Assembly: GCA_018818125.1 (NCBI GenBank) | Contig: JAHISQ010000101.1 | Coordinates: 14,977-78,976 of the forward strand | DNA: 64,000 nt | DNA from: Candidatus Rifleibacteriota bacterium | Lineage (GTDB): Bacteria; Muiribacteriota; Ozemobacteria; Ozemobacterales; Ozemobacteraceae | Direction of reading: 5' to 3' | Shown: in pieces, positions 27,120 to 57,758 of the stretch | Position numbering within the stretch: the first letter of the stretch is position 1 | How the letters are laid out: every line of letters starts with the position of its first letter | Notes under the pieces: model-generated | What the model saw: the letters and a program-made list of their open reading frames with translations, nothing else | The model's database searches: none | Told to the model about the DNA's origin: nothing | Position numbers and translations under genes: made by a program

Positions 27120-27361
27120 AATTGCCCAACCTTTTATTTTGCAGATCGACAAAAACATAGAATCCAGCTCATTTAACCACAGGCTCACCCCACGGGGCAA
27201 AGGTAATTAAACCTTCCACACCTGCGAGGCCTTTTAGATTCCTTTATGTTGAATGAACGATTTATCGGTATTAATGCAAAGTCAGTCGAATTTCTGGTAA
27301 AATGAGCGAAGTAGATCTGTATGTCATATCGTATACATTCGTTAGTCAGGAGATGCTTGGC

Positions 27362-28216
27362 ATGAATCGAAAAATGTTTCGCAGCTTAATCTGGATTCTC
27401 ATTCTACAGCTCATAATTGGCCCGGCCATGCTATTGGCACAGACCGATGCTGCGCCGAAAACAAACAGTGCCCTCGAAACCATGCTGAACTACGACTATA
27501 AAACCTACGCCGGCAAGGTTCTCGTCCAACAGATCCGTGAAGATCTTGCCGCCGGCCGGCCAATAGATATGAATAAAGTCAGCAAAGAATTGACCGGCAA
27601 GCCTTATCTGACTCAGGTCGCCATCGGAGGCGGTTCAGAAGTTGCCGCAAATGTTCTCCAGTATGGCATGACCGGAGTTTGCCCTCCTTACGGTATGATT
27701 GCCGGGGCAATCATCGCATCGACCATGCAGGCTTTCGGTGGCGCCGTTGGGTATGAGTCAAGCGAGGCAATGAAGTCAGGCAAAACGCAGACGTCAAAAC
27801 AGATTCTGGGCAAAGCACTTTCAAGCATCGACATGCCTGAATTTATTGGCCAGACTACTGGTGGAGTGATTGGCTCAATGGTAGGGCAGGCATTGATTCC
27901 CATACCCATCGTCGGGATGATGATCGGAAGTATTGTCGGCAGTCTGGTTGGCAGCGCCGCAGTAAACCTGCTGCGCAAAATTCCAGCCTTTGCCTCTGCC
28001 TTCGACGCCATGCAGAAGAAGTGGGAGAAGATTGGCAAATCAATGATGGAAAATGAAGAGCCAGAGCCAGCAACAGACTCACCACAAGTGACCGTGACCG
28101 CAACCGCAGACACAACCAGCCAATCGACAACAACTCAACCAGAGACAAACCCGGGCAGTCTCATGCATGTCGCTCCAACAGCAGCAGACAGCCTGGCAAG
28201 CGAAAACGGCCAATAA
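27362..28216 (+). CDS. hypothetical membrane/secreted protein with glycine-zipper segments
   Basis: ATG 27362 ten nt after AGGAG; signal peptide; GxxxGxxxG zippers (GMIAGAIIASTMQAFGGAVG, GGVIGSMVGQALIPIPIVGMMIGSIVGSLVGSAAV); Thr/Ser/Gln-rich tail. Confidence 0.45.
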   Translation: MNRKMFRSLIWILILQLIIGPAMLLAQTDAAPKTNSALETMLNYDYKTYAGKVLVQQIREDLAAGRPIDMNKVSKELTGKPYLTQVAIGGGSEVAANVLQYGMTGVCPPYGMIAGAIIASTMQAFGGAVGYESSEAMKSGKTQTSKQILGKALSSIDMPEFIGQTTGGVIGSMVGQALIPIPIVGMMIGSIVGSLVGSAAVNLLRKIPAFASAFDAMQKKWEKIGKSMMENEEPEPATDSPQVTVTATADTTSQSTTTQPETNPGSLMHVAPTAADSLASENGQ

Positions 28217-28232: not shown

Positions 28233-28898
28233 TCAGAATTCACCGGTTACTCCGATAATTGGGCCGCTGAATTCCTGTTTTTTGGCACGGCTTTCCTCAT
28301 CAGAATTATTCAGTGAAGTCAGTAAACCCGGTTTAGTCTGTTCTGGTGCTGTGTTATCAGTTCTGCTCATCTGCGAATCGCGGCCGCCTTTTTTAAAGCC
28401 AAAACCAAGCATCCAGCTTGGCTGAGATCTTTCAGTCGGCCGGTTCAGGCGATATCCGATCAGATATCGTTCCGACTGGCTGTCACGCTTGTCGTCATCA
28501 GCGTTACTACGAGGCAAATCGCTGCTACTATAACGTGGTTGCTGCATTCTTTCGCGCTTCTCGGCGCTGAAAATCGGTATAATCCATCGTTTGTCGCTGC
28601 TTCCCTCTTTAAGATCAAAGCGCTCAAGAATATTTTCGCCCGTTTCCCGCAGAGATTGAAACAAAGGATTTTTCTCGAGCAGCTGGAGCGGCCCGCGCTT
28701 TTCTGGTGGGTCATTCTGGTCATTCAGCAGCAAAGAATTCTGATAGCTTTCTCTGGACTGAAATTCGAATTGCGTGTCATTTACCCAGGCCCCCAGAGAC
28801 GCATTTTTGTTGTCAACGGCAGTAAACCCGGAACTGCACACACCCAAACACAAAGCAAAAACTCCGCATATTTTCTGAACAGTCCTGGTCGGGCGCAT
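28233..28898 (-). CDS. hypothetical secreted protein
   Basis: Signal peptide MRPTRTVQKICGVFALCLGVCSSGFTA; 221 aa, charged low-complexity regions. Confidence 0.4.
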   Translation of the reverse strand: MRPTRTVQKICGVFALCLGVCSSGFTAVDNKNASLGAWVNDTQFEFQSRESYQNSLLLNDQNDPPEKRGPLQLLEKNPLFQSLRETGENILERFDLKEGSSDKRWIIPIFSAEKRERMQQPRYSSSDLPRSNADDDKRDSQSERYLIGYRLNRPTERSQPSWMLGFGFKKGGRDSQMSRTDNTAPEQTKPGLLTSLNNSDEESRAKKQEFSGPIIGVTGEF

Positions 28899-29017: not shown

Positions 29018-29422
29018 TCAGCGAAAATCTGCGTATTTTACACCACTGATGCTGAGTTCTTCGCTGGCAGAATGAAACAGTGGCCGGCCCTGGGCGTCCT
29101 GGGCAAGAACCCAGTCAAACTGGCCGGTAAATGGGTCTGAATAAGCCTGACGCAGGAAGCGATTGCCGACGCTGTCGCGCAGCAGTTCTTCGGTTCCGGT
29201 CGGGGGGCGGTCGTGGCAGCGCTCGAACTTGTTAACGGCGCGCTTAAATTCGCCGAGAATAAAGCGCAACTGGTCTTCTTTGCCACGGCGGACTTCGAGA
29301 TCTACACGCGGAATCACAACGGCAAGACTTATTGCCAGAAGCACCACCGAGATGCTTATTATCAGGAGAGAGACGCCACGGCGGGCATTAGCAGGTGCTG
29401 TGATCGCCTCAAAACTCGGCAT
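29018..29422 (-). CDS. pseudopilin-like protein with degenerate prepilin leader
   Basis: N-terminus RRGVSLLIISISVVLLAISLAVVIP resembles a class III signal but lacks the +5 Glu; C-terminal DPFTGQFDW...SGVKYADF parallels the neighbouring GspG-like protein; 14-nt overlap with it. Confidence 0.5.
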   Translation of the reverse strand: MPSFEAITAPANARRGVSLLIISISVVLLAISLAVVIPRVDLEVRRGKEDQLRFILGEFKRAVNKFERCHDRPPTGTEELLRDSVGNRFLRQAYSDPFTGQFDWVLAQDAQGRPLFHSASEELSISGVKYADFR

Positions 29423-29792
29423 AGCTTATTCCATCAAGACTGAGGCCGTCAGCGCCAGATTTAACGTCATAAACATCATTACCCTGCTGCGAAGGCACGG
29501 TGACCCAGGTATCATTCTTTTCGGTAAAAGGATCGGGCGGAATGCTGCGAATATAGCCTTGTTTTACCAGTGTTTCGAGGGTTTCTGGCCACTGTTCGTG
29601 ATCTTTAAAGTAATCGTTGAGAGTATTGCGAAAAACGTAGAGGTCTTTTTTCAGCGCAGTCTCTTTGGTGCGTTTAATGGTGCGGCCATACATCGGCACA
29701 ACGGTGACGTAAAGCAATCCGATAATGGCAACGACAACACTCATTTCGACAAGTGTAAAGGCCACTCGGTTCTTTTGCAAATTCACGAACAT
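29409..29792 (-). CDS. GspG/PulG-like major pseudopilin (prepilin-type N-terminal cleavage/methylation domain)
   Basis: AFTLVEMSVVVAIIGLL prepilin motif (G-F-T-L-V-E); 127 aa; C-terminal DPF/W/YDV..SGADG pattern as in GspG. Confidence 0.75.
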   Translation of the reverse strand: MFVNLQKNRVAFTLVEMSVVVAIIGLLYVTVVPMYGRTIKRTKETALKKDLYVFRNTLNDYFKDHEQWPETLETLVKQGYIRSIPPDPFTEKNDTWVTVPSQQGNDVYDVKSGADGLSLDGISYAEF

Positions 29793-29795
29793 AGT

Positions 29796-30836
29796 TTACC
29801 CCCTGGTACCCCGGTAAAAATCCAGAAAGTTTTCGCCGGCAACGCGATCAAGTTCATTCTTAAGATACAGCTTTTGAACCGATTGTGCAAACAACTGACT
29901 GCCCTGACCGGCACTCGCGATATTGGGTTCGATCTGTGTGATTTTGCCCTTCTGAATGATGCTCGTTACGGTACTGTTCATGACCAGAGTCTCGTGAACC
30001 GGTATAATGCGCTTGCCAACCTGATCGGCAATCAGAGCCTGCGAAACAACGCCCTGCAGATTGTCGGCAAGAACCTGGCAGACGAATTCACGATCGCTCT
30101 CGGGGAAAGAAAAAATGAATTTTTCGAGCGTGTTCACTATGCCAAGCGTCTGCATGCTCAATATTACAAAATGGCCGCCGGCAACGTATTCAATGATGCT
30201 CTTGAATGGTATCTCGCGCTTAAGATCGCCAATTACCAACACATCAACATCCATACGTTTCGCGAAGTTGATACCCTGATCAATTACAAAAATATCTTTC
30301 CGAAACTGGCGCTGCGAAATGCGACAGCGCTTCGGCTCGAAATTGAATTCAATCGGATCTTCGATTATCAGAATATGCCTGGAATGGCGCTGGTTCATGC
30401 GCTCAACAATGCTCGCCAGAGAAGTCGAAATACCTGAGCGGGCCGGACCGGCAATGATAAAAACACCTTTTTTGGCGTCGAGAAATGGCACCAGCGTATC
30501 AGGGAACTTGATTTCTTCGAGCGTAGGAATCTTGCTGTCGATGATTTTTATCAGCGCAACCGGCTTCTGCTGTGAATGAAACAGGGTAAGACGATAGTTA
30601 CATGGCGGCTTACCAAAAAAATTAGCTTCAAAGGAGCTGTTTTTATTGAATTTTTCAATATCTTCCGGGCTCAGCAAGGCTGCTAACAGGTCGTTCATGT
30701 CGGCTTCCTGGACTGGTGGGGAGTCCATGTGGCGGAGAAATTTGTTTTTGCGAATAAGCGGACGAGCTGAGATCTTGAGGTGAAGCTCAGTACCACCTGA
30801 TTTCTTTACGTTTTCGATGAGTTTTTTGATATCCAT
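29796..30836 (-). CDS. PilT-family ATPase paralog with degenerate catalytic motifs (pseudo-ATPase)
   Basis: PilT N-domain (ELHLKISARPLIR) and core architecture, but Walker A is GPARSGISTSL (catalytic Lys replaced by Ile), Walker B/Asp box is DVLVIGDLKR (Glu to Asp) and His box TLHT is replaced by SMQT. Confidence 0.75.
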   Translation of the reverse strand: MDIKKLIENVKKSGGTELHLKISARPLIRKNKFLRHMDSPPVQEADMNDLLAALLSPEDIEKFNKNSSFEANFFGKPPCNYRLTLFHSQQKPVALIKIIDSKIPTLEEIKFPDTLVPFLDAKKGVFIIAGPARSGISTSLASIVERMNQRHSRHILIIEDPIEFNFEPKRCRISQRQFRKDIFVIDQGINFAKRMDVDVLVIGDLKREIPFKSIIEYVAGGHFVILSMQTLGIVNTLEKFIFSFPESDREFVCQVLADNLQGVVSQALIADQVGKRIIPVHETLVMNSTVTSIIQKGKITQIEPNIASAGQGSQLFAQSVQKLYLKNELDRVAGENFLDFYRGTRG

Positions 30837-30848
30837 GCGCTGCCCCTC

Positions 30849-31901
30849 TTACGCTTTGCCCGAAATGCGCGACTTGTCGATCGCGTATTCAGCGGCAGTT
30901 TTCTGAGTTATAACCCGTTTGCGCGCCAGTGCGGCGAGCTGCGAATCAAAAGTTTTCATTCCGACAGTATCACCCTGACCCTGCAAGGCCCGGAACATGC
31001 TCATATTGTTGTTGCGCACCAGCGCCTTCATCTGCGGGGTGTTGACCAATATATCAAAGATGGCAACACGACCACTTTGGTCATCTCTTGGCACCAGACG
31101 CTGGCTTACGATCAACTTGAGCTGCGAAGCAATACGCGCCCGCAAAGCTTCGCGATCGGCATGTTCACGACAGCTGATAAGGCGGTCAAGAACCTGCTGA
31201 CAATCGCCACCTTCGGTTGAGGCGATAACCATACAACCTGATTCACAGAGGGTCAACGCCTGATCCATGGCATCGGAGTAGTTGATCGAATCAGACACTA
31301 CCACATCAGGATCAACGCGATAGGCTTCGCACAGCCCATTATAAAAATTTGAAATATCGACTGGAATACTGCGCTGAATAAAGGCGCTCTTGTCATCTTT
31401 AAAAACGTATTCAACCGGGTTTTCGATCGTGAAGATACTCTTTTCAAAATGACGGTTGATAAAGTTGAGCATGGCCGCGATGGTCGAGGTTTTACCCTCC
31501 CCAGATGGGCTGCCAACCATAATCAGGCCGGATGGCTGAGAAATAACCTTGCGCACGCCTTCGCCAAAACCAAGATCTTCGAGCTCAAAAAATTTCTCGC
31601 TGATAAAACGAATTGCGATGGCAAATTTGCTCTTGTCGAGAAACACCGAAAACCTGAGGCGACCAACGGTAGGAACATCTTCAGCATAAGTCACCTGACG
31701 CTGCCGGCCAAGAATTTCGCGAGCCTTTGGCGTGCTGGTTTCGATAATTATCTTTTTGATCTGATCTTCGTTGAGAATTATGCCTTCGAGTTTTTCGATG
31801 GCTCCATTCAATCGGTAAAATATCGGCTGATCAGGAAAAAGATGCAGGTCAGAAGCACCTTTAACCTTAACCATCTGACAAATCTTCATTAATTCCGTCA
31901 T
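30849..31901 (-). CDS. PilT-family ATPase paralog with degenerate Walker B and His box
   Basis: Walker A GSPSGEGKTST (Lys kept, one-residue insertion); Asp box DVVVSDSINYSD instead of DIILVGEMRD; His box region ASTEGGD instead of GTLHT. Confidence 0.75.
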   Translation of the reverse strand: MTELMKICQMVKVKGASDLHLFPDQPIFYRLNGAIEKLEGIILNEDQIKKIIIETSTPKAREILGRQRQVTYAEDVPTVGRLRFSVFLDKSKFAIAIRFISEKFFELEDLGFGEGVRKVISQPSGLIMVGSPSGEGKTSTIAAMLNFINRHFEKSIFTIENPVEYVFKDDKSAFIQRSIPVDISNFYNGLCEAYRVDPDVVVSDSINYSDAMDQALTLCESGCMVIASTEGGDCQQVLDRLISCREHADREALRARIASQLKLIVSQRLVPRDDQSGRVAIFDILVNTPQMKALVRNNNMSMFRALQGQGDTVGMKTFDSQLAALARKRVITQKTAAEYAIDKSRISGKA

Positions 31902-31978
31902 TTTCAGACCTCTATAAAGTTTATTTGCTGTTTAATCGGCAAGCTCGCAGTTTTTATTCACCCGCCCGGGCAAATTAC

Positions 31979-34126
31979 TCAAATGCGCTGCAGAAGTTCG
32001 ACTACATTTTTAAGAACCTGACTGTCGGGTGGAAGCGTTTTGCGCAGCCCCTCAAGAATAACTCTGGCCTTTTCACTCTCTTCAATAGCGTAGTAGCAAA
32101 GAGCCAGATGATACGAAGAAGACAGGTCGCGCGGGTTAGCCTGCAGTCCCCGACTAAGCGCCGATATTGCCTGTGCATATTTCTTCTGATGAAAATAGGC
32201 CAGGCCAAGTGCACCATAAATGCGAATGAGATTTTTCTTGTCGTCGGCATTTACGTATTGCTGCACCCGTTCATAGCATGAAGCGAGCTGTTCCCATTCT
32301 TTTTTGCGAAAATAGATCTGCCCCAGCAGCACTGCCGCGTTTATATGTGACGGTTCATCGTCAACTATGCCAGCAAGCATGGCGGAGGCCTTTTTCATTT
32401 CGCCGAGACTATAAAAAGTGTGCCCAAGATAGTAACGTGCCTCAATATTATCTGGCTGAGCCGAAACCAGCTTCTCAAGCAGTTCCCGGGCTTTGGCAAA
32501 ATCGCCGCCGGTGAACAGCTCGATGCTCTGAGACAAAAGATCAGACTCAGGTATTTCGGCACTCGTGGTACCAAGAGTAGTAAGACCTTCCATGTCGCGG
32601 CCGACTTCTTCCGCAAGCCCTTTGAGCAGAATATTAGAAAATTTCTCGGGCAGCTGCACATAAGAGCCAATGTTTCCGGCAATTCGCACCCAGCTTAACA
32701 ACTCATTCTCACGCTTCTTTTCATTTAATGCCGTGGCGACCTCATCAAAAACGGCAAGTTCGCCGTTAAGCAAAAGCGCCTTATAGTATTCAGAAAAGAC
32801 TTCGGCGCGAACCGTGCCAAGAAATTTCTTGATCTTAAGCAGTTCTTCGCGGGCACCAAGATGACCAAGAGCCGCAATCAGCCAGGGCATCTCTTCTTCT
32901 GGTTCTTTTTTGATGCGGTCAAAAAGGTTCGCAATCGCCTCTTTGATGTTGCGCGAAACTACGTAATCGAGAGCACAGCTTATCACCGGTGCACTGTCTT
33001 CCTTTTTAAGGAGATCGAGAATATCCTGATCGGGAAAATCTTCAATCCTGATTGCGCACTCAACCGCCTCTTTGCGCACCCACTGGCTCTCATCACTGAG
33101 CAAAGGCCTTATTTCACGAACTCCCACTCCGGCTTCTAATGACAAAGCCGCTTTTAATGCCATTTTTCGGACACCGAAATTCTCGTCTCTGAGCAGCTGA
33201 TGCACATATTCTTCACGTTTGTCGTTAGCGATACGGGCAAGAACATAGGCTGCCGAGCGCCGGGTTGAAGCATCAGAGCTCTTCATCATGGTTTGAAGCT
33301 CTTCGGTAACCGCCTCTGAATCCGCAGTTGCCAGGGCAATACAAACATTGGCGCGAACACGGTTATTCGAATGACCGTAGAATTTTTTTAGCTTTCGTTT
33401 CATTTCGAGCGCTGGAATCTTGAGATACGAAATAGCTTCAACAGAATTCGCCTGTATTCTCGGATCGAAAGAGTCCAAACCGCTCTCGAAAGTCTTGAGC
33501 AGGCGAGCTTCGGCAAAGGTTGCCAGCGATGAAACTATGATCGCCTTGAGTCGCGAATCTCTTGCAATCTCGAACTGGCCAACCAAGGCAGGGACAGCTT
33601 CGGGATCTTTAAGTTTTGACAGAATTTCAAGAACATTTATCACGATCCATTCGTCCGGATCGTTAAGCAGGCCGCACAAACTCTGCACAACATCACGACC
33701 ACCCATTTTATACAAAGCTCGTGCCGAATAATATCGCACCATGCGGTCTTCGTCGTGCAGTAGCTCCATCAGGGGGCGAGCCGCCTGAGGGTCGCCGATT
33801 TCGCCCAGCACCCTTACTATCTCTTCTTTATGTAGTGCATCAGGGTTCTGTAAGCGCTCGATCAGCCGGGCAACCGGCGTGCTGCTTTTAAAATAGCCAA
33901 GAGCTGTAATTGGCTCGATGTAATCGGCATACTCGTCAAATGCCTTGGTAAGAGTAGGCAATGACTGGTTGTCACCAATTTTACCAAGGCTGAGCAGAGT
34001 CTCAAATCTTAACTCGTCAGAGATATCGTTCTGCAATAATTCCTCAAGACGCGTGGTGGCCGGGCGCAAAAGTCTTCTCGCCGCCTTAACATATCTGAAG
34101 GATTCAATCTGATGCAGGTCACTCAT
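31979..34126 (-). CDS. HEAT-repeat (PBS-lyase type) plus TPR-repeat protein
   Basis: Many about 30-aa HEAT-like units (VR..A..ALG.IGD..A...L) across the first 480 aa; C-terminal TPR units (ARYYLGHTFYSLGEMKKA..., LGLAYFHQKKYAQAISAL...); 4-nt overlap with the downstream PilT gene. Confidence 0.7.
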   Translation of the reverse strand: MSDLHQIESFRYVKAARRLLRPATTRLEELLQNDISDELRFETLLSLGKIGDNQSLPTLTKAFDEYADYIEPITALGYFKSSTPVARLIERLQNPDALHKEEIVRVLGEIGDPQAARPLMELLHDEDRMVRYYSARALYKMGGRDVVQSLCGLLNDPDEWIVINVLEILSKLKDPEAVPALVGQFEIARDSRLKAIIVSSLATFAEARLLKTFESGLDSFDPRIQANSVEAISYLKIPALEMKRKLKKFYGHSNNRVRANVCIALATADSEAVTEELQTMMKSSDASTRRSAAYVLARIANDKREEYVHQLLRDENFGVRKMALKAALSLEAGVGVREIRPLLSDESQWVRKEAVECAIRIEDFPDQDILDLLKKEDSAPVISCALDYVVSRNIKEAIANLFDRIKKEPEEEMPWLIAALGHLGAREELLKIKKFLGTVRAEVFSEYYKALLLNGELAVFDEVATALNEKKRENELLSWVRIAGNIGSYVQLPEKFSNILLKGLAEEVGRDMEGLTTLGTTSAEIPESDLLSQSIELFTGGDFAKARELLEKLVSAQPDNIEARYYLGHTFYSLGEMKKASAMLAGIVDDEPSHINAAVLLGQIYFRKKEWEQLASCYERVQQYVNADDKKNLIRIYGALGLAYFHQKKYAQAISALSRGLQANPRDLSSSYHLALCYYAIEESEKARVILEGLRKTLPPDSQVLKNVVELLQRI

Positions 34127-35160
34127 TCAATAATCTCCTTCATGATAGTTGCTACCAGCTTGCCGTCTACTCGTTCATCTTTAAGAATTTCGTTAAGAGA
34201 ATCCTTTAGCGTTTTGCACCCATCTTTGCGCGCCAGCATCAATGCTGATTTAAGCTGATTTGTCTTCTTTTCTCTGATCAGATTGCGCATGGCCGAGTTC
34301 ATAATCATCAGTTCATAGGCCATTACACGCTCACGCTTATGCAGGCTGGGTAACAGAATCTGGGAAATAATGCCAATCAGCGACATCGAGAGCTGGGTGC
34401 GTATCTCTTCGTGCCGGTGTCCCGGAAATACATTGATGATACGATCTATGGTCTGCACAGCACCGACCGTGTGCAGCGTCGAAAATACCAGATGCCCGGT
34501 CTCAGCTGCGGTAAGAACCATTTCCATTGTATCGGTATCGCGCATTTCACCAACCAGAATCACATCGGGATCTTCTCTTAAAGCACTCATCAGAGCACCA
34601 TGATAATTGCCGGCGGTAACTCCGATTTCACGTTGCGTAAAAATAGATTTGCGCTCACGGTAGACAAACTCAATCGGGTCTTCGATCGTAATTACATGTC
34701 GGTGCGAGGTGCGATTTATTTCGTTAACGATAGCGGCCAGCGTATGGGTCTTGCCTGAGTTGGCAGGCCCGGTAACCAGGAACAGCCCGCGCGGTCGCGC
34801 CGCGATTTCCTTGAGCATCATTGGCAGGTTCAGCGAGTCGATAGACGGGACATGCATCGGAATAAAACGAAATGCACCCGATAAACACCCACGCTGTCTG
34901 AAAATACAGACGCGAACCCGCCAGCGATTTTTGTAGCGAATCATAAAGTTAGTTTCGTGCATGGCACGTAAGTCACTTTGCGCCTTAACATCCATTAAGG
35001 GAAGAAAAAGGTTTGGCATTTCCTGATACGCCAGCGGTTCATGCGGCAAAGGGATCAGACGTCCACCAACTCTTATCAGCGGCGGCGCGCCAGTCTTTAA
35101 ATGCAGGTCAGAAGCCTGACGCTCAATAGCGGTTTCGAAAAAATCGTGTATTCTCAGCAT
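34123..35160 (-). CDS. PilT-family twitching-motility (retraction-type) ATPase, canonical motifs
   Basis: Walker A GPANSGKTHT, Asp box DVILVGEMRD, His box TLHT, PilT N-domain DLHLKTGAPPLIRV. Confidence 0.85.
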   Translation of the reverse strand: MLRIHDFFETAIERQASDLHLKTGAPPLIRVGGRLIPLPHEPLAYQEMPNLFLPLMDVKAQSDLRAMHETNFMIRYKNRWRVRVCIFRQRGCLSGAFRFIPMHVPSIDSLNLPMMLKEIAARPRGLFLVTGPANSGKTHTLAAIVNEINRTSHRHVITIEDPIEFVYRERKSIFTQREIGVTAGNYHGALMSALREDPDVILVGEMRDTDTMEMVLTAAETGHLVFSTLHTVGAVQTIDRIINVFPGHRHEEIRTQLSMSLIGIISQILLPSLHKRERVMAYELMIMNSAMRNLIREKKTNQLKSALMLARKDGCKTLKDSLNEILKDERVDGKLVATIMKEIIE

Positions 35161-35180
35161 CTGGGCCTCATCTTTGCTTC

Positions 35181-36290
35181 TTACATCGGTGGTTCGTTCA
35201 GAATTTTTCTCAGTGCAGCTGGATTTGGAGCTGCCGCCAAGGCGTCTTCTTTTTTAACCACCCGGTCTTTTACCAGCTGCGCCAGTGACATTTCCATGGT
35301 CATCATACCGTATTCGGCGCCGGTCTCAAGATATGACGGCAACATGTGTATCTTGCCATCAGCAATCAGGGAACGCACAGCCGATGAGTTTATAAGCACT
35401 TCAAATGCTGCAACACGCCCACCGTCAGGTTTGGGGAGCAGTGTTTGCGAAACAACTCCGCGCAAAACCATCGAAAGTTGAAGTAAAATCTGATGATGCC
35501 GCGATTCCGGAAAAACGTTAACAATACGTTCGGCCGTGCTCACTGCCGAACTGGTGTGTAGTGTAGCAATTACCAGTTTGCCAGTTTCGGCGGCGTTAAG
35601 CGTCAGTGAAATAGTTTCAGGTTCCCGCATTTCGCCGACAACTATGATATCTGGATCCTGACGCAATACGGTCAAAAGCCCCTCATAGAAACTCAAACAG
35701 TCAACACCAACCTGGCGCTGATTAAAAAAACTCATGTTATCTTCAAACTGAAATTCAATAGGATCTTCGAGCGTAACCACGTGGCGTCGAGCCATTCGGT
35801 TAACGTAGCTCAGATAACTCGCCATGGTCGAAGTTTTGCCGGCACCAGTCGGGCCGGTAATCAGAATCAGACCGTTGGGTTGCTCGATCAGACGGCGGGC
35901 GGCCAGCGGCAAACCAATTTCGTCAAACTCCATCACACGATAGGGTATGACGCGAAAAACCGCGCCAAAACCATTGATATCATTGTAGAGGTTTACCCTG
36001 AAACGACAAACACCTTCAAGGGTGTAGGCAAAGTCGATTTCGTGGCTTTTTCTGAACAGGTCTTCCTGTTCAGGGGCCAGCAATACTTCGATAATACGAT
36101 CAAAGTCTTTTTTGCTGAACTTGAAACCATCGACGTGCCGAATATGCCCATCTACACGAATCGCAGGCGCCTTACCTACTTTCAGATGCAGGTCAGATGC
36201 GCCCTCGTCAAAAGTGAGTTTAAGTAATCGGTGTAAGCTTCTTTCGTCTGCCATGAACGGTATTATACTCATCAGGCTCCTTCTTAACAA
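35181..36290 (-). CDS. PilT/PilU-family ATPase, canonical motifs
   Basis: Walker A GPTGAGKTST, Asp box DIIVVGEMRE, His box TLHTSSA, N-domain DLHLKVGKAPAIRV. Confidence 0.85.
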   Translation of the reverse strand: MLRRSLMSIIPFMADERSLHRLLKLTFDEGASDLHLKVGKAPAIRVDGHIRHVDGFKFSKKDFDRIIEVLLAPEQEDLFRKSHEIDFAYTLEGVCRFRVNLYNDINGFGAVFRVIPYRVMEFDEIGLPLAARRLIEQPNGLILITGPTGAGKTSTMASYLSYVNRMARRHVVTLEDPIEFQFEDNMSFFNQRQVGVDCLSFYEGLLTVLRQDPDIIVVGEMREPETISLTLNAAETGKLVIATLHTSSAVSTAERIVNVFPESRHHQILLQLSMVLRGVVSQTLLPKPDGGRVAAFEVLINSSAVRSLIADGKIHMLPSYLETGAEYGMMTMEMSLAQLVKDRVVKKEDALAAAPNPAALRKILNEPPM

Positions 36291-36369
36291 TCGAATTTAA
36301 TTGCTTATTTAAAAAAAATAAATTTTCTGGTAATATGCAAAAGGATTAAAAGTTGAGTCGGGGAGTCAA

Positions 36370-38835
36370 ATGCCAGCATACGAAGCAGTTATTAGTAATA
36401 TCAAACCGCTGATTGCACGTCTTTTACACTTTTTTCTTACAGGTGAATACGAACAGCGACGCGAATCAGCAATTGCACTGTCAAAATTCAAGGGCGAAAA
36501 AGCAACAGATTTTCTGCTCGAAACCTACGAAAGCGACAACATCCAGGACTTCATGGCCCTGGCGCTCGGTAACATCGACAACCTCAAGGCAGTAAACCTG
36601 CTGATACATGCCCTCAACGATTCCCAGCAGGAAGTCAGATTTCATGCCGCCCAGGCGCTGGGCATGCTCGAAAACCCTGAAGCTCTCGACATATTGATGG
36701 ATGCTCTGCACGTTTATGCTGAGGCCAGCGTTGGTGTTACTCCCGAACCACCTCTCGAGGAAGCGGCGAGTCAGATCTTCTTCGAAGAAGACGCAATCAT
36801 CAGCGCGATTCTTGCTGTCGGCAAAATTAAGAACTGGCGGGCAATTTCGCTGCTCAAAAAGCTTCTAGCCCAGGAAAAAAGCGCACGTATCCGCGCCTCG
36901 ATCATCATGTCGCTAGGATTGATGGCTTCAGACAAGCTGATGCCGGTTTTTCAGGCGGCACTGCGTGATGAGGATCCCAGAGTCAGAGCGAACGCAATTG
37001 AAGCTATTGAAACGATCAAATCAGGATCAATCGTCGGAATTATCCAACCCTATCTGGAAGACCCCAGTAACCGCGTGCGCGCCAACGTAGCCAAGGCAAT
37101 CTGGAAATACGGCGATTTCGATGTATCAGACACTCTGAGGCAAATGCTGGAGCACCCGGATAAGTGGTATCGCGCTTCAGCAGCCTACGCCATCGGCGAG
37201 ATTAAAGACGCCCGCTTCGTTCGCGAGCTTGCAAAAGCTCTCAAAGACGAAGACCCTGACGTCAGACGCAACGCAACCAACGCCATGCGCAAGGTTGAAG
37301 CAAAAGACGCCCTGCAGCACGTAAAACCGCTGCTCGACGACCCGAATTTTGATGTACGCGTCGAAGCGGTATTGGCCGTCAGCAGATGCGCCCCGGAAAT
37401 CGCGAATGAGCTGTTGAAAGAAAAACTTCAGCACGAAGAAAACTTTATCGTTCAGGCAACACTGATTTCCTGCATCGGTCAGTCTGGCAAACCAGCAATG
37501 ATCCCTGTTATTCGCAGTTACCTCGATAGCGAAGATCCTCGCGTCGTCTCAAACACAATCGACGCCCTCGTAAAGCTCTCGCCTAAGTCTGACCCTGCAC
37601 TGATATCAATGTTAAAAACCCTGTTGAAGCATGAGGATAACCGTGTAAAAAGCACAGCGATCCGGACCCTCTGGGTTTGGGGAGAATACGAAGTTCTCGA
37701 CAAACTGCGGGAGCTGTTCAGCAGCCCCGACAAGCGTCTAATCCAGTCGGCGACATTTGTTCTCGGCGAAATCGGCAAAGAAATCAGCAAAGTAGAGGTT
37801 CTCTCCGCAAGGGTTAATCTGATCGTAACCGAACTCATTGACAATCCTGAGACAATAAACGATCTGATCAGGTCTGAATCTGCTTCTGCTGAATCCACTG
37901 CGCCAGCACAGACAGCTGAAGAGTCAACGCCTCAGGCAGAACCTGAGTTAACCGCTGACAAAGAAACATCAGGCGAACCAGAACGAGAACTCCCCCCCCC
38001 AATGGAACCGGAGTTCGAAATACTGCAGCCTTCTGCTGATCCAGCCAGCAAAGAGCCGGAGCAGCCAGCTGCAGCGCTGCCGCAGCCAATCAGCGCTCAG
38101 ATTCTTCCAGACAACAGTTTCAATGAAGAAATCGAGATAGCCAATCGCTTTGTAACGGCACGCAATTACCCCGCTGCCGAAAAGGTTTTTGCACAGATTC
38201 TGCACAAGTCGCCTTCGCATCTCAAAGCGATCCTGGGCATAGCCAACCTTTGTTTCCTGCAGAAGAAAAATGCCGAAGCGGTTAAATACTATCAGTCCGC
38301 GCTTAAAATCAATCCAAATCTGGTCAAGGCACATTTCAATCTTGGCACAATTTTCTATTATGCACGCAAATATGACGATGCGGTCAAGCATCTGGCCAAG
38401 GCTCTCAAGCTGTATCCCAAAATTCTCGGCGCCTATCTGATTCTCGGGCAGATTTATCAAATTGCCGGCAAATTCAGCGAAAGCGTGCGACTGATGACTC
38501 ATGCCGCGGCGCTGTCTCCGCGCAATCCAGTTATTTACCAAAAGCTGGCAACCCTGCATATTCAGCTTGGCAAATACGACGATGCAATTGAAGTGCTGCT
38601 CAAAGCAGTCGACATTTCTCCGGCCGACGTTGAGTCTAACCTGCTGCTTGCCTATTGCTTCAATTTGACCGGGCAGTCCCAAAAAGCGTTCAGCGCTATG
38701 GATCTCACATTAAGGGCCTGCGCCCAGTCTCCGCAACAGGATCTGGCGCTGCGCCAGATGCTCAAGGCGTATCTATACCTTAGCTCTATCCAGAAAGAAC
38801 CCACACCTGCACAGGAGAACAATAATGCCTCTTGA
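36370..38835 (+). CDS. HEAT-repeat plus TPR-repeat protein (paralogous architecture to 31979-34126)
   Basis: N-terminal PBS-lyase HEAT-like repeats (DPRVRANAIEAI, NRVRANVAKAI, DPDVRRNATNAM), acidic Pro/Glu-rich linker, C-terminal TPR units; divergent from the PilT operon. Confidence 0.7.
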   Translation: MPAYEAVISNIKPLIARLLHFFLTGEYEQRRESAIALSKFKGEKATDFLLETYESDNIQDFMALALGNIDNLKAVNLLIHALNDSQQEVRFHAAQALGMLENPEALDILMDALHVYAEASVGVTPEPPLEEAASQIFFEEDAIISAILAVGKIKNWRAISLLKKLLAQEKSARIRASIIMSLGLMASDKLMPVFQAALRDEDPRVRANAIEAIETIKSGSIVGIIQPYLEDPSNRVRANVAKAIWKYGDFDVSDTLRQMLEHPDKWYRASAAYAIGEIKDARFVRELAKALKDEDPDVRRNATNAMRKVEAKDALQHVKPLLDDPNFDVRVEAVLAVSRCAPEIANELLKEKLQHEENFIVQATLISCIGQSGKPAMIPVIRSYLDSEDPRVVSNTIDALVKLSPKSDPALISMLKTLLKHEDNRVKSTAIRTLWVWGEYEVLDKLRELFSSPDKRLIQSATFVLGEIGKEISKVEVLSARVNLIVTELIDNPETINDLIRSESASAESTAPAQTAEESTPQAEPELTADKETSGEPERELPPPMEPEFEILQPSADPASKEPEQPAAALPQPISAQILPDNSFNEEIEIANRFVTARNYPAAEKVFAQILHKSPSHLKAILGIANLCFLQKKNAEAVKYYQSALKINPNLVKAHFNLGTIFYYARKYDDAVKHLAKALKLYPKILGAYLILGQIYQIAGKFSESVRLMTHAAALSPRNPVIYQKLATLHIQLGKYDDAIEVLLKAVDISPADVESNLLLAYCFNLTGQSQKAFSAMDLTLRACAQSPQQDLALRQMLKAYLYLSSIQKEPTPAQENNNAS

Positions 38836-39010
38836 AAAATCGCCACAACGCTGGAACTACAAAACTCTTGATCTTACCGGACTCAGAGGCGATGATTTTC
38901 TGGAAAGACTTGGTTATCTTCTTGACGAAGCGGGGCGTAACGGCTGGGATCTCGCCTATATGTGCGAAGACTACATGATCATGAAACAGCTTTATTTTGC
39001 CAAAGAGTGA
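38825..39010 (+). CDS. DUF4177-like small protein
   Basis: 61 aa; RWNYKTLDLTGLRGDDFLERLGYLLDEAGRNGWDL matches the DUF4177 pattern (W-E/N-Y-K-T...G...G..D...LE..LNE.G.EGWEL); 11-nt overlap with the upstream HEAT-TPR gene. Confidence 0.45.
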   Translation: MPLEKSPQRWNYKTLDLTGLRGDDFLERLGYLLDEAGRNGWDLAYMCEDYMIMKQLYFAKE

Positions 39011-39019
39011 TAATGCGAA

Positions 39020-41104
39020 TTGTTGACGACCAGCAGACTAACTCTTGACGATTCGTTAAGCAAAGTAAAGGGAATCGGCCCCAAAAAATCAGAAGCGCTC
39101 AGGCAGAACGGAATAGCGCAGATTGTTGATTTGCTGCGCCTTTATCCTGCCAGATACCAGGATCGCCGCAGTTCCATAGCAATTTCCCAGTTGTCAGCAG
39201 GCGTCGATTGCCTGATCTGCGCGCGTCTCGAATCAGTTAAGTCGTATCACGCACGGCGCGGACTTACCGTGATCAACGCCGAATTTTCTGACACTACCGG
39301 CAAAATTTCGGCAAAGTGGTTCAACCGTGTATATCTTACCCGGCAACTCATAACCGGCAAGCATTACTGGCTGTATGGGCAGGTAACAGAGATAAAAAAC
39401 AAACTCTGCCTGTCAAACCCTGAAATTGAGCCTGTTGACGACAAGCAGACATTGACCGGCACAGGTGATCGACTTACGCCGGTTTATTCTTCGAATACTC
39501 GCCTTTCTCAGGCGGGCATTTCAGCGCTATCACTGCGTCGACTGATTGCCGGAATCATCCCGCGCATAGACTGGGATACCTCGCTGCCACCAGGCATAAG
39601 GAACTCATCATTCAATGCGATCAGCGAAGCACTGGAGCAAGCACATCGGCCATCATCATTAGAAGCCGCCAACAAGGCGCGGCACACTCTGGCATTTTTC
39701 GACCAGGTGCTTTTTCAAATCGGTGTATTAAAGCGACGCGAAGCATTGACCGGCGTTTTGAGCCTGCCAGATGCCAATCGCGCCAAAGCCGTCGATTCAG
39801 ATTATCCCCTGCCCTTTTCGCTGACATCAGCACAAAAACAAAGTCTCGGCGAGATTCTTTCTGATATCCAGGCGCATAGCAAAGACAACCCGCCGATGAA
39901 CAGGCTGGTACAGGGTGACGTTGGCTCTGGCAAAACCCTGGTAGCCTTTCTGGCAATACTGCATTTCAACCAGAAAACCAGCCCCGGCAGTCAATGTGCC
40001 TTTATGGCGCCAACCGAGATTCTCGCGCGCCAGCATCTGCAAAGTTTTATCAATTTTTTCCCCCAGTTTGCCGATCGCGCCTGCATACTTACCGGCAGCT
40101 GCAAAAGCGCAGAACGAAAAAAAATCAACGCAGCAATAGGCAGCGGCGCAATCAGCTTTGTTTTTGGCACCCACGCCCTTTTCCAGGAAAGCCTGGAGTT
40201 TGCTGACCTCGGCCTGTGTGTTATCGATGAACAACAGCGTTTTGGCGTCAATCACCGCCGGCAGTTCGTGCGTAAAGGCCGAAATCCCCACCAGTTATTG
40301 CTCTCGGCCACTCCTATACCGCGCACGCTTTCACTCACTATTTTTGGCGACATGGACACCAGCACTATCCAAGAATTGCCACCCGGGCGGCAACCGGTCA
40401 AAACCACACTTGCTACGAGCTTTGCTCAGACAGTTGAGCACATTGAAGCTGCCCTGCACAACCGGCAACAGATCTACCTGGTCTGCCCACTGATTGAACT
40501 GTCTGACAAGAAAGACTGGACCTCTGTCGAAGAAGCGGCCGAGCGAACTGCCGAACTGCTGCCACAAATAAAATTTGCCTGTCTCACCGGCCAGCAAAGC
40601 TGGGAAGAAAAATCAGCCATCATGCAGGCTTTCAAACAGGGGCTGCTCGACATGGTTATCGCGACCACTGTTGTTGAAGTTGGCGTCGATAACCCGAATG
40701 CAACACTGATGATAATAGAGAACGCAGACTGCTTTGGTCTTTCGCAACTGCATCAGTTGCGAGGTCGTGTTGGCAGAGGAATGCATGCCTCTTTATGTAT
40801 TCTGGTATCACATGTGGCCGAAGAATCTGAGCGGCTGAAGGTGCTGGCATCAACTAACGATGGGTTTGAGCTTTCGCTCGAAGATTTGCGTCTGCGCGGC
40901 CCCGGCGATCTCGTTGGCACACGTCAGAGTGGCCTCTCCCACCCCTGCTTTTCTCACCGTATTGGGCAAAAACTGATCGAAAATGCACGAACCAGAGCTT
41001 TTTCGATTCTCACCGAAGAAACCGGCGAAGTAAAAGACTGGTTCATGGCGCAAATGATTAAATCTTTTGGCGACAGTTACAAAACATTTATGGAAGGCGG
41101 CTAA
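39020..41104 (+). CDS. recG: ATP-dependent DNA helicase RecG
   Basis: TTG start at 39020 in the supplied track; wedge domain, helicase motifs GDVGSGKT and VIDEQQRFG, C-terminal helicase domain; 694 aa. Confidence 0.85.
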   Translation: MLTTSRLTLDDSLSKVKGIGPKKSEALRQNGIAQIVDLLRLYPARYQDRRSSIAISQLSAGVDCLICARLESVKSYHARRGLTVINAEFSDTTGKISAKWFNRVYLTRQLITGKHYWLYGQVTEIKNKLCLSNPEIEPVDDKQTLTGTGDRLTPVYSSNTRLSQAGISALSLRRLIAGIIPRIDWDTSLPPGIRNSSFNAISEALEQAHRPSSLEAANKARHTLAFFDQVLFQIGVLKRREALTGVLSLPDANRAKAVDSDYPLPFSLTSAQKQSLGEILSDIQAHSKDNPPMNRLVQGDVGSGKTLVAFLAILHFNQKTSPGSQCAFMAPTEILARQHLQSFINFFPQFADRACILTGSCKSAERKKINAAIGSGAISFVFGTHALFQESLEFADLGLCVIDEQQRFGVNHRRQFVRKGRNPHQLLLSATPIPRTLSLTIFGDMDTSTIQELPPGRQPVKTTLATSFAQTVEHIEAALHNRQQIYLVCPLIELSDKKDWTSVEEAAERTAELLPQIKFACLTGQQSWEEKSAIMQAFKQGLLDMVIATTVVEVGVDNPNATLMIIENADCFGLSQLHQLRGRVGRGMHASLCILVSHVAEESERLKVLASTNDGFELSLEDLRLRGPGDLVGTRQSGLSHPCFSHRIGQKLIENARTRAFSILTEETGEVKDWFMAQMIKSFGDSYKTFMEGG

Positions 41105-41105
41105 A

Positions 41106-41675
41106 ATGCGGGTTATCACCGGAAGTGCAAAAGGCAGAAAACTTAAAATGCCGGGGGGCGGCAAAACAAGACCAGCAATGGATATTGTTAAGGGCTCAAC
41201 TTTTAATATGATTGCAGAGTTTGTTCCTGACGCACGTTTTCTTGATCTCTTTGCCGGCTCGGGAAATCTTGGCATCGAAGCGCTCAGTCGAGGCGGCAGT
41301 TATGCTGCTTTTGTTGATAGCTCACGCGAATGCACTGTCACGATCAAAGAAAACCTGACCCTCACCAAACTTGAAGATCGGGCAGAAATCTTCACCATGG
41401 ACTGCATGAAGTTTCTGCAGCGCCACAATATGCCGCGCTTTGATGTGGTCTTTATTGATCCGCCATATCTCAAAGGGCTGCTTGAACCTATTCTGAAATA
41501 CATACCTGATTGTTCGATGTTCAGCCCAGACACCCTTTTTATCATAGAACGCCAGAAAAGAGATCTGCTCGGACTCGAAGATATGCCTGAATACAGGCTG
41601 CTCGACGAAAGAGTATTCGGCGACACCGTAATAACGTTCTTTCGACTCAAAAATCCTGACACAACTACCAGCTGA
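41106..41675 (+). CDS. rsmD: 16S rRNA (guanine966-N2)-methyltransferase RsmD
   Basis: MRVITGSAKGRKLKMPGGGKTRPAMDIVKGSTFNMI, DLFAGSGNLGIEALSRG, FIDPPY motif; ATG at 41106 two nt after the recG stop. Confidence 0.85.
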   Translation: MRVITGSAKGRKLKMPGGGKTRPAMDIVKGSTFNMIAEFVPDARFLDLFAGSGNLGIEALSRGGSYAAFVDSSRECTVTIKENLTLTKLEDRAEIFTMDCMKFLQRHNMPRFDVVFIDPPYLKGLLEPILKYIPDCSMFSPDTLFIIERQKRDLLGLEDMPEYRLLDERVFGDTVITFFRLKNPDTTTS

Positions 41676-53024: not shown

Positions 53025-53723
53025 ATGGGAGAAGTAACACAAGACCTGGGCCGAATCCAGAAAATCATGGAAAACGGCAATTATGAAGAGGCACGACCCT
53101 TGCTAAAGGAATATCTGGCAGCCTCACCCAATGACCCTCTTGCAATAAGACTCTATGGAAATACCTATGCTTACACAGGCTATCTGGGCAAAGCAAAAAA
53201 GATCTGGCACGACGGGCTTCGCAAGTTCCCGGAAAATATCGACCTGATCTACAACTACGCACTGGCTCACTATCTTCAGGGCAACCTCTTCTACGCCCGG
53301 CGTTACTGGAAAAAGGCTCTCAAATTAGCTCCCGAAGACTCAGAAATCTACTTTAACCTCGGGCAGATAGCCCGCGATGAAGGTCGATTGCGGCTTGCCA
53401 TAAATTACTGGCGAAAAGCACTTCAATTCAAGGCTGACAATGTTGAGGTCATGAATAATATTGGAGTTGCTTTTGCAAGTCTACGCAGCTTTGGCAAAGC
53501 TGCGATCTGGTACAAAAAGGCTGTAAAAACAGACAAAAACTACGCTTTGGCCCACTTTAACCTGGCAAATGCCCTCTTTGAAACCGGTGAACTCGTAGCC
53601 GCCCAGAAACACGCCGAAGCAGCGGCCAAACTTGACCCTGCATCGCACATGGAAACAGTAAGTCTGCTGAACCACAAAATCAAAGAAAAACTCGCTGGCG
53701 AAAAAGCTCCGAAACAGGGTTAA
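53025..53723 (+). CDS. TPR-repeat protein
   Basis: Six TPR units with the W-LG-Y-A-F-P pattern (AIRLYGNTYAYTGYLGKAKKIWHDGLRKFPEN...). Confidence 0.7.
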   Translation: MGEVTQDLGRIQKIMENGNYEEARPLLKEYLAASPNDPLAIRLYGNTYAYTGYLGKAKKIWHDGLRKFPENIDLIYNYALAHYLQGNLFYARRYWKKALKLAPEDSEIYFNLGQIARDEGRLRLAINYWRKALQFKADNVEVMNNIGVAFASLRSFGKAAIWYKKAVKTDKNYALAHFNLANALFETGELVAAQKHAEAAAKLDPASHMETVSLLNHKIKEKLAGEKAPKQG

Positions 53724-54256: not shown

Positions 54257-54340
54257 GGCTACCCCTGCAAAAGTGATTTTGCACTAACTATCGTAAGCAG
54301 GGATGATTTTTATAAGCTTTTTTTCGTAAGAAACGCTATA

Positions 54341-56621: not shown

Positions 56622-56724
56622 TGATTAATTGGCTCTCTTATAAAGATAACACAAACCACAACCACATGCCAAAAAAAAAGTCGCCAGAGAATTTCCTCTC
56701 TGGCGACTCTTTGTCATTCAGTGC

Positions 56725-57738: not shown

Positions 57739-57758
57739 GTTTCTACAACTACCCCTGG

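Follow-up and report, generated by a model that had tools for sequence, protein, structure and literature searches.

A conserved cluster of PilT-family ATPases, HEAT/TPR proteins and pseudopilins in Riflebacteria: a possible accessory module of a type IV filament machine

How several PilT-family motors come to share a single pilus machine is an open issue, and it is raised in an unusual form by a gene cluster at positions 29018-38835 of a 64 kb stretch of the Candidatus Rifleibacteriota bacterium contig JAHISQ010000101.1 (GCA_018818125.1). This whole stretch is termed the window, and coordinates refer to it unless another locus is named. The cluster encodes four PilT-family ATPases (T1 to T4), two HEAT+TPR proteins (HT1 and HT2) and two pseudopilins (pp1 and pp2), and the question is what such an assortment could serve when no genes for filament assembly accompany it. 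The answer favoured here, at a probability of roughly 0.55, is that the cluster serves a type IV filament machine encoded elsewhere in the genome, as an accessory module of motors and regulators peculiar to Riflebacteria. This reading draws on the family assignments, motif states and location of the products, on the phylum-wide synteny of their genes, on purifying selection, on a split into two sub-modules and on the homology of pp1 and pp2 to terminal minor pseudopilins, each of which is taken up below.

The four ATPases are encoded on the minus strand, T1 at 35181-36272 (363 aa), T2 at 34123-35160 (345 aa), T3 at 30849-31901 (350 aa) and T4 at 29796-30836 (346 aa). All four match Pfam T2SSE, and the best NCBIfam model for each is the PilT/PilU model TIGR01420, whose curated cut-off of 319.1 bits (whole-protein score) is exceeded by T1 (404.4 bits) and T2 (390.4 bits), placing both in the family. 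T3 (271.4 bits) and T4 (222.7 bits) fall under the cut-off and outside formal membership, with TIGR01420 still by far their best model. A PilB or GspE would be expected to have its own model as best match and to measure about 500-600 aa with an N-terminal extension; the PilB and GspE models give only 25-128 bits on T1 to T4, against cut-offs of 617-850, for proteins of 345-369 aa, and neither identity applies. The TfpB and ComGA models likewise score far under TIGR01420. Among solved structures in the PDB, T2 matches PilT chains with E-values of about 1e-87 to 1e-78, PilU with 1e-64 and PilB with 1e-28, and PilT is also the best match for T3 and T4; indeed, a T4 family profile of 27 sequences aligns end to end with Pseudomonas aeruginosa PilT (3JVU, 8e-63; GspE, 1e-11). 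The original prediction, made from the DNA letters alone, that these ATPases are of the PilT type and not PilB or GspE is therefore borne out by the family scores and structural matches alike.

Catalytic motifs, read from the sequences and checked in alignments of 33 (T1), 34 (T2), 44 (T3) and 45 (T4) orthologues, separate T1 and T2 from T3 and T4. T1 (Walker A GPTGAGKT, Asp box EDPIE, Walker B GEMRE, His box TLHT) and T2 (GPANSGK[TS], EDPIEF, GEMRD and TLHT, respectively) present all four motifs in canonical form, including the Walker B GE, and keep them in 33-34 orthologues. The C-terminal AIRNLIRE motif, which we take to be the mark of PilT proper as against PilU, is carried by T2, a canonical PilT, as AMRNLIRE (AMRN[LQM][IV]RE in the alignment) and only partially, as A[VI]RSLI[AG][DE]GK, by T1, a canonical ATPase of the PilT/PilU family; no motif of this type is present in T3 or T4. 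T3 reads GSPS[GC]xGK[TS] at Walker A, where Lys and Thr/Ser are kept, ENPVE at the Asp box, DPDVVV[ST]DS at Walker B with no Glu, and [ST][ED]GG at the His box with no His. T4 reads GPxRSG-I-[ST] at Walker A, the Lys having become Ile, mostly keeps EDPIE, has GD (SD in two orthologues) for GE, and has mostly Gln in place of the His. These degenerate states are fixed in 44-45 orthologues, and residues I135 and G202-D203 of T4 are invariant in a 27-orthologue alignment that reaches down to 45% identity.

Selection on the degenerate pair was gauged by pairwise ratios of non-synonymous to synonymous substitution (dN/dS) against three related genomes, which are approximate because dS lies at 0.8-2.4, near saturation, and which are all still far below 1: 0.02-0.04 for T1 and T2 (T1 0.024-0.035), 0.04-0.07 for T3, 0.04-0.06 for T4, about 0.05 for the two HEAT/TPR proteins, and 0.09-0.17 for the two pseudopilins. 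Since their altered motifs are fixed and their ratios are 0.04-0.07, T3 and T4 read as conserved PilT-derived pseudo-ATPases and not as decaying copies, and a pseudogene status is ruled out on the same grounds. Two dead PilTs had indeed been predicted; the motif losses behind that claim stand, while the further assertion that these proteins cannot hydrolyse ATP would follow from the roles established for the lost motifs in the family. T3 probably still binds nucleotide, given its P-loop Lys and Thr, and T4, with Ile for the Walker A Lys, probably does not.

The arrangement is a property of a phylum and not of one contig. A locus scan with one genome per species yielded about 45 Riflebacteria loci, in which gene order was compared within 10 kb on either side, and Pfam tables were read for seven neighbour loci (L-numbers denote the related loci compared, P-numbers homologous proteins). 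The best T4 matches come from Candidatus Riflebacteria, Rifleibacterium and Ozemobacteraceae: 88 matches (a few of them partial) are of the Riflebacteria type, at 45-92% identity, and below them identity falls sharply to the 27% or less of generic PilT. For T3, phmmer run exhaustively against 1.84 billion representatives returned only three sequences of its type, the next single-domain matches being canonical PilTs of at most 34% identity. HT1 has full-length orthologues, at 41-100% identity, in Riflebacteria only, the identical one lying on an NCBI contig of Riflebacteria, and beyond these come generic HEAT proteins covering no more than 61% of the query (mostly under 50%). By these searches, full-length relatives of T3, T4 and HT1 appear confined to Riflebacteria. 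Clusters of the Riflebacteria type also occur, at 56-76% identity, under the names of other phyla, namely at L021 (Ca. Methylomirabilis), L025 and L027 (Ca. Avigastranaerophilus), L046 (Erysipelotrichia) and P0254 (Clostridiales), names that likely reflect mis-binning or mis-labelling.

The order T1, T2, HT1, T3, T4, pp1 and pp2, with HT2 on the other side of T1, is found in nearly every locus with enough flank, among them the complete 5.2 Mb chromosome OZ223236.1 and Ca. Ozemobacter sibiricus; the neighbourhood check proposed with the original prediction thus finds the combination of four PilTs and HEAT/TPR proteins kept across the phylum. HT2 lies divergently beside T1 in 23 loci and has moved, remaining near, in two others, where it is relocated together with RecG (downstream in L003, upstream on the same strand in L024). 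The most constant features are the adjacency of T3 and T4, seen in every locus, and an ATGA overlap of T2 with HT1. Departures from the standard order follow a pattern: T1-T2-HT1 and T3-T4-pp1 occupy separate contigs in GCA_015232575.1, T1-T2-HT1 stands alone in GCA_015233565.1, and T3-T4 stands alone in L044. Because the cluster comes apart in this way, it consists of two sub-modules, T1-T2-HT1 and T3-T4-pp1(-pp2). Only pp1 of the pseudopilin pair is retained in L030 and L033, and both pseudopilins have been lost from a gut and rumen clade of metagenome-assembled genomes (MAGs) from goat, reindeer, rumen and bird gut (L024-L029, L034 and L035), which keeps T1, T2, HT1, T3, T4 and usually HT2, with unrelated genes following T4. 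In L049 (5624-6689) the T2 orthologue is divided between two open reading frames (ORFs; 213 and 140 aa), reflecting a frameshift or pseudogene or else an assembly error.

A neighbour-joining tree with 100 bootstrap replicates recovers T1, T2, T3 and T4 each as a clade with 100% support. T1 and T2 are not sisters (0/100 replicates), each having instead a sister sequence in a divergent groundwater MAG, and T1 is not placed with PilU sequences; T3 and T4 form branches too long for neighbour joining to resolve, and their grouping is unsupported (53/100). The four PilT paralogues are older than the radiation of the phylum. Outgroup PilT loci hold PilT/PilU pairs, none with HEAT/TPR or degenerate partners. 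In the groundwater MAG NC_groundwater_727 (JACPTH01; L054 8919-12442 and L048 1-995), the sisters of T1 and T2 overlap by 7 nt, the position of HT1 is taken by a 464-aa protein in which GAF, nucleotidyl-cyclase and Zn-ribbon parts were read by eye, and a T4-like gene is followed by a small polytopic membrane protein in place of a pseudopilin.

HT1 (31979-34126, minus strand, 715 aa) and HT2 (36370-38835, plus strand, 821 aa, divergent from T1) were predicted to be paralogous HEAT/TPR proteins, and both Pfam and their mutual alignment agree. HT1 matches HEAT_2 (1.5e-44) and TPR_19 (7e-22), HT2 matches HEAT_2 (4e-66) and several TPR families and bears an acidic, Pro-rich linker, and the two align at 23.5% identity over about 690 aa (E 5e-30). 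Hydropathy analysis finds no transmembrane segment or signal peptide in either protein or in T1 to T4, which places all six in the cytoplasm. An AlphaFold2 model of HT1 (mean predicted local distance difference test, pLDDT, 90.5) comprises a solenoid at residues 1-511, a disordered linker at 515-524 and a ten-helix TPR module at 526-713. Foldseek matches to it in the PDB are generic protein-binding scaffolds only (alphaRep designs, Integrator-PP2A, karyopherins/importins and the intraflagellar transport complex IFT-A), and for this reason a scaffold role is plausible for HT1 and not specific. The membership of HT2 in the module is suggested by its paralogy with HT1 and its adjacency to T1. Its stop codon is overlapped by 11 nt by a conserved 61-aa ORF (38825-39010, plus strand), possibly co-transcribed with it, and RecG (39020-41104) and an RsmD-like Cons_hypoth95 methyltransferase (41067-41675) follow. 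The arrangement of HT2, 61-aa ORF and RecG is also seen in L001, L003 and L087, and the block moves together in L003. A 787-aa protein with faint HEAT matches in L085 may be the counterpart of HT2.

How tightly the genes are joined varies along the cluster. All eight ORFs described in the original prediction were found where it had placed them. Of the 4- to 14-nt overlaps it had read throughout the minus-strand genes, those of T2 with HT1 (4 nt) and of pp1 with pp2 (14 nt) stand, and the other junctions are gaps of 3, 12, 20 and 77 nt, the largest between HT1 and T3. The T2/HT1 overlap, by which HT1 would be translationally coupled to T2, also occurs in L001, L003 and L085. The T1 start proposed at TTG 36290, to which the ORF does extend, gives way to ATG 36272, most likely the true start, with an AAGGAG Shine-Dalgarno sequence upstream. 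Between T1 and HT2 lies an AT-rich divergent intergenic region (36273-36369) presumed to hold the promoters. Promoter and terminator counts, like consensus promoter matches in that region, did not exceed those of shuffled controls, and the scan is consequently uninformative on operon boundaries; the segment 28.0-39.5 kb, compared with Rfam at E-values as high as 1, gave no family and no riboswitch clue.

The pseudopilins connect the cluster to complete filament machines. The product of pp1 (29409-29792, minus strand, 127 aa) matches N_methyl and TIGR02532, and its score of 42 bits on the GspG equivalog TIGR01710, against a cut-off of 88.85, makes it a GspG-like minor pseudopilin and not a GspG. 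Its leader, cleaved as RVA/FTLVEM, is a canonical class III signal peptide in which F11, T12 and E15 (Phe1, Thr2 and Glu5 of the mature protein) do not vary among 26 homologues, of which most have Gly at -1, to give a family motif of [G/A]/F-T-L-[IV]-E, and with such a cleavage and methylation site pp1 would be a substrate of prepilin peptidase. An AlphaFold2 model (pLDDT 86.9) shows the pilin fold, with a 52-residue N-terminal helix (13-64), strands and a small head. The PDB entries that resemble it most are TcpA, PilA4 and PilE as assembled in filaments, at weak E-values no better than 7e-3. The product of pp2 (29018-29422, minus strand, 134 aa) has no Pfam or NCBIfam match and is a paralogue of pp1 (28% identity, E 6e-15); the pp2 leader, RRG/VSLLI, lacks Phe1 and Glu5 and departs from the class III pattern. 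Each protein has one N-terminal transmembrane helix. The pairing of a GspG-like with a degenerate pseudopilin, as first read from the DNA, is upheld.

A second tier of pp1 homologues, at 40-54% identity over nearly the full length, occurs in other bacteria; their genes lie at the 3' end of compact and complete operons, which encode in order a T2SSG pilin, a T2SSF platform, an MshEN-domain T2SSE, a PilM or unannotated protein, three small proteins, a secretin, a pseudopilin and the pp1-like protein. In L089 the pp1-like gene is followed, with a 14-nt overlap, by a 173-aa protein without Glu5 that is the best match to the pp2 profile (E 8e-20). The pp1-pp2 pair is thus homologous to the two minor pseudopilins that close the operons of complete type IV filament machines, and in Riflebacteria it has moved into a PilT operon; as its nearest outside relatives end the operons of complete machines, pp1 and pp2 would need a machine that the cluster itself does not encode. 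The complete operons were seen at L089 1-10904, L090 1061-10411 and the contig of P0297 (JGI 3300047160), one pp1-like match being named Burkholderiales; they may include an SLT gene after T2SSG, and they have a secretin with STN and two to three pseudopilins at the end. Faint TPR matches occur at the secretin gene in L090 and the P0297 contig, and an LPMO_10/GbpA gene directly upstream of the L089 operon is a possible secreted substrate. The window itself has a second pseudopilin operon (53720-59114, minus strand), which has two secreted proteins bearing signal peptides (451 and 337 aa), next to them pseudopilin-like genes of 210 aa (G/ITFVE), 180 aa (GspK-like, no Glu5) and 370 aa (G/VTLVE), and after these a 178-aa coiled-coil-like protein. 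This operon contains no ATPase, platform or secretin, as had been predicted for it, and it indicates that the genome uses prepilin-type proteins besides pp1 and pp2.

How might such a module operate? The accessory reading would entail physical complexes among the products, an adaptor or gate role for T3 and T4, a scaffold role for HT1 and HT2, and the existence of a partner machine. The filament acted upon would be a type IV pilus or pseudopilus whose assembly genes lie elsewhere in the genome. In the first sub-module, T1 and T2 would be catalytically competent hexameric ATPases that drive filament retraction, and HT1, made together with them, would most likely bind, position or gate their rings at the machine, with HT2 as a second scaffold of the same kind. 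In the second sub-module, T3 and T4 would keep the PilT fold without hydrolysis, most likely as non-catalytic ring subunits or as adaptor rings docking on the base of the machine or on T1 and T2, and would thereby control when these active motors engage. The pseudopilins would be inserted in the filament as minor subunits, and pp2, lacking Glu5, may be a tip or initiator subunit.

Several findings weigh against an accessory module of this kind. Its partner machine has not been located: PilB/GspE, PilC/GspF, PilD, PilMNOP and secretin are absent from the whole window, no extra T2SSE-type ATPase lies within 10 kb on either side of the cluster in the roughly 45 genomes, and T2SSF, Peptidase_A24 and Secretin are absent from the Pfam-annotated neighbour loci. 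The reported lack of PilB, PilC, PilD and PilMNOPQ within 7 kb therefore extends to the full window; at the same time, neither pilB (about 45 related genomes) nor pilC (the annotated neighbour loci) was seen beside the cluster, where they would have made it an ordinary pilus locus. Having no assembly ATPase, platform, peptidase or secretin, the locus does not constitute a complete type IV filament system, whether a type IVa pilus, a type II secretion system (T2SS), a mannose-sensitive haemagglutinin (MSHA) pilus or a Tad system, and the literature searched is silent on assembly machinery elsewhere in Riflebacteria genomes. The loss of pp1 and pp2 in the gut and rumen clade implies that the ATPase and scaffold part is not strictly dependent on these pseudopilins. 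Mixed hexamers of catalytic and non-catalytic subunits have no direct precedent among unfused proteins, since PilT and PilU are reported as separate homohexamers (PMC6821130). Finally, HT2 may be part of another unit, because it lies next to RecG as consistently as it lies next to T1.

The alternative that survives best, unlikely as it is, holds that the two sub-modules are merely neighbours with separate functions, T1-T2-HT1 supplying a type IVa pilus with its retraction motors and scaffold, and T3-T4-pp1-pp2 independently regulating or braking another pseudopilus, one of the T2SS or MSHA kind. This would suit the genome with the halves on different contigs and those in which T1-T2-HT1 or T3-T4 stands alone, and it would place the widest gap, of 77 nt, just where the units meet; the relatives of pp1 in operons with MshEN ATPases, and the second pseudopilin operon with its suggestion of more than one filament type, also favour it. 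Against it, nearly all of the remaining 40 or so genomes keep the halves side by side on one strand, down to a T4 identity of 45%, which would be unusual for unrelated units and argues for a functional link, and the split genome retains both halves.

A role in competence, in which the motors and pseudopilins would serve a DNA-uptake pilus, is quite improbable as a rival, and it is in fact a physiological role compatible with the accessory reading and not a distinct mechanism. It is suggested by the recombination genes near the cluster: downstream of HT2, the window, L001, L003 and L087 all have the coupled 61-aa gene and then RecG; RecD2 lies at 44999-47179 of the window; HU and a RecN-like SMC_N/AAA_23 gene come after pp2 or T4 in other genera; and in L003 TfoX_N is encoded some 4 kb upstream of T1. 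RecG, RecN, RecD2 and HU are, however, housekeeping genes whose adjacency may be coincidence, ComEA, ComEC and DprA were not seen in any locus, and flanks other than RecG differ between genera.

Could the cluster instead be a self-contained and undescribed machine, in which PilT rings and HEAT/TPR scaffolds extend and retract a pp1/pp2 pseudopilus without PilB, PilC or secretin? The absence of an extra assembly ATPase near the cluster in about 45 genomes, and of platform, peptidase and secretin from the window and the annotated neighbour loci, is what such a machine would predict, its composition is phylum-specific and under strong selection, and PilT can promote extension of the MSHA pilus as well as its retraction (PMC9815625). 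The reading is nevertheless very unlikely. Only two proteins of the cluster, the single-pass pp1 and pp2, are membrane-bound, and to our knowledge every known type IV filament machine requires a polytopic platform protein and a prepilin peptidase, neither of which is encoded here. Furthermore, pp1 carries the canonical cleavage and methylation site, complete systems use the homologues of pp1 and pp2 as minor subunits, neither pseudopilin is kept in the gut clade, and the cluster can be split. There is accordingly a slim chance that Riflebacteria lack a conventional PilB and PilC for this filament and that mixed catalytic and non-catalytic PilT rings on HEAT/TPR scaffolds both extend and retract it; if they did, type IV filaments would have a motor of a new kind, composed wholly of retraction-type ATPases. 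The idea of a dedicated motor and regulatory module, advanced in the original prediction, thus holds insofar as the cluster is a conserved and selected unit in about 45 genomes, and yields to the accessory reading insofar as it implied a system complete in itself.

Least probable of all is an ordinary, redundant pilT/pilU array, with T3 and T4 as duplicates in decay and the adjacent HEAT/TPR genes unrelated to it, a view encouraged by the PilT/PilU pairs of outgroup loci and by the frequency of PilT paralogues apart from pilB and pilC, as in Myxococcus xanthus with its four PilT-like paralogues (PMC13584747), and contradicted by T3 and T4 genes that are intact in 44-45 genomes, with fixed substitutions, dN/dS of 0.04-0.07 and ancient clades, by the 4-nt T2/HT1 overlap and HT1 position kept throughout the phylum, and by the want of HEAT/TPR or degenerate partners in any outgroup PilT locus. 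An anti-phage defence system was also considered and rejected, PADLOC having given only generic HEAT-repeat and weak P-loop matches in a conserved chromosomal context.

The wider surroundings offer some further observations. The immediate flanks are unrelated in content: a glyoxalase and an ankyrin protein lie on one side, and the other side has RecG, a PocR histidine kinase and RecD2; the ORFs u221 (28233-28898) and u304 (27302-28216), considered as extra components, were left out, being conserved only in the closest genomes. The ankyrin protein (23727-26321, plus strand) is 864 aa long and nearly all ankyrin (Ank_2, 1e-84), which is unusual for a free-living bacterium, and a 182-aa ORF without family match precedes its gene. 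The segment 10001-20000 has a GC content of 0.38-0.41, where the remainder of the window has 0.42-0.50. It contains VTC and DUF4956 genes, a number of ORFs of no family, a two-component system and a radical SAM gene, and may be an acquired island. Across loci, the cluster tends to sit among genes of the recombination or competence type (RecG and RecD2 in the window; HU, RecN-like and TfoX_N elsewhere), the HU and RecN-like genes being found on the far side of the cluster at L001 11835-13791, L024 11876-13603 and L027 11359-13029, with L003 49-390 and 12219-12500 grouped with them. Regulators of the partner-switching and extracytoplasmic function types lie near the cluster in two distant genomes, as a SpoIIE/HAMP phosphatase, STAS, sigma-70 r2/r4 and FecR in L085 (12410-17615 and 18047-21100), and as STAS and FecR in L003 (18440-19854).

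Set beside known systems, the cluster comes closest to the PilT/PilU pair of type IVa pili in Vibrio cholerae, Acinetobacter baylyi and P. aeruginosa (PMC6821130, PMC6762196), which likewise consists of tandem paralogues encoded away from pilB and pilC. T1 and T2 belong to the same family model and carry all of the catalytic motifs, and in both cases one ring would work through or with another: PilT and PilU interact as separate homohexamers (PMC6821130), and in V. cholerae PilT Walker A and B mutants still permit retraction powered by PilU, which deletion of pilT does not (PMC6821130; also PMC6762196). The part played by such an ATPase-dead PilT is just what a natural pseudo-PilT could do. 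Unlike that pair, the Riflebacteria genes number four paralogues and not two, of which T3 and T4 would be naturally and permanently non-catalytic and score under the family cut-off. Scaffold genes of the HEAT/TPR type and minor pseudopilins are coupled to them, and T1 does not fall with PilU in the tree.

For HT1 and HT2, the nearest analogue is SgmX of M. xanthus, with MglA and FrzS (PMC7519303, PMC7668184, PMC9811614), likewise a large cytoplasmic TPR protein. Regulators of this type control the place and time of pilus motor activity, a function that HT1 and HT2 may share, and SgmX, together with MglA, stimulates pilus formation (PMC7519303, PMC7668184). The likeness established in sequence is one of TPR repeats: HT1 and HT2 have a HEAT solenoid of about 500 residues ahead of the TPR module and are encoded in or beside the ATPase operon, with translational coupling to a PilT, whereas SgmX acts on pilus formation and extension.

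The pseudopilins, in turn, recall the minor pseudopilin complexes GspH/I/J/K of the T2SS and the minor pilins of type IVa and MSHA pili, pp1 being GspG-like with Glu5 and pp2 without it, as GspK-type tip subunits lack Glu5. They differ in being detached from the assembly genes and attached to a PilT operon, and in the distance of pp1 from GspG itself (42 against 88.85 bits); a minor-pseudopilin pair can thus move from an assembly operon to a retraction operon.

A further parallel is furnished by fused tandem PilT-PilT proteins of 660-1024 aa with two PilT-like domains (P0331, P0333-P0340, P0343, P0357 and P0367, the last from a Verrucomicrobiota MAG), of which we know of no description. Both halves are canonical in some, and in others one half is degenerate, as is the N-terminal half of P0338 (GSGRS, LQDRIRF, IDEVYG, no His), so that an active and an inactive PilT module are obligatorily joined; mixed rings of PilT-type domains would, by this token, occur in nature. 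Unlike the Riflebacteria proteins these are single polypeptides, and they have no special kinship to T3 and T4 (28-31% identity per domain), their ranking above single PilTs in the T3 search being an artefact of two domains whose scores add. In concept, T3 also resembles the nucleotide-binding, non-hydrolysing partners of other hexameric motors, namely FlaH with FlaI of the archaellum and the alpha with the beta subunits of the F1-ATPase, since it keeps the P-loop Lys and Thr. FlaH is RecA/KaiC-like and not derived from PilT, and its likeness to T3 is conceptual only.

On present evidence the cluster is not a new category of machine. The claim of an undescribed system made for it survives to this extent, that the searchable literature describes no such cluster, of PilTs with conserved dead paralogues and HEAT/TPR partners, and no natural, conserved pseudo-PilT; the self-contained machine that the claim implied is not supported. 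What the cluster supplies is two natural pseudo-PilTs, fixed throughout a phylum and sharing a cluster with probable catalytic partners and a coupled scaffold, which makes the adaptor or gate hypothesis testable by heterologous expression without a Riflebacteria culture. A probable role can thereby be given to several phylum-specific genes of a lineage in which unknown gene families are reported to abound (PMC10849945). Where the PilT/PilU pair poses the problem of two motors at one pilus, Riflebacteria offer, across the phylum, a natural experiment in the possible cooperation of catalytic with non-catalytic PilT rings.

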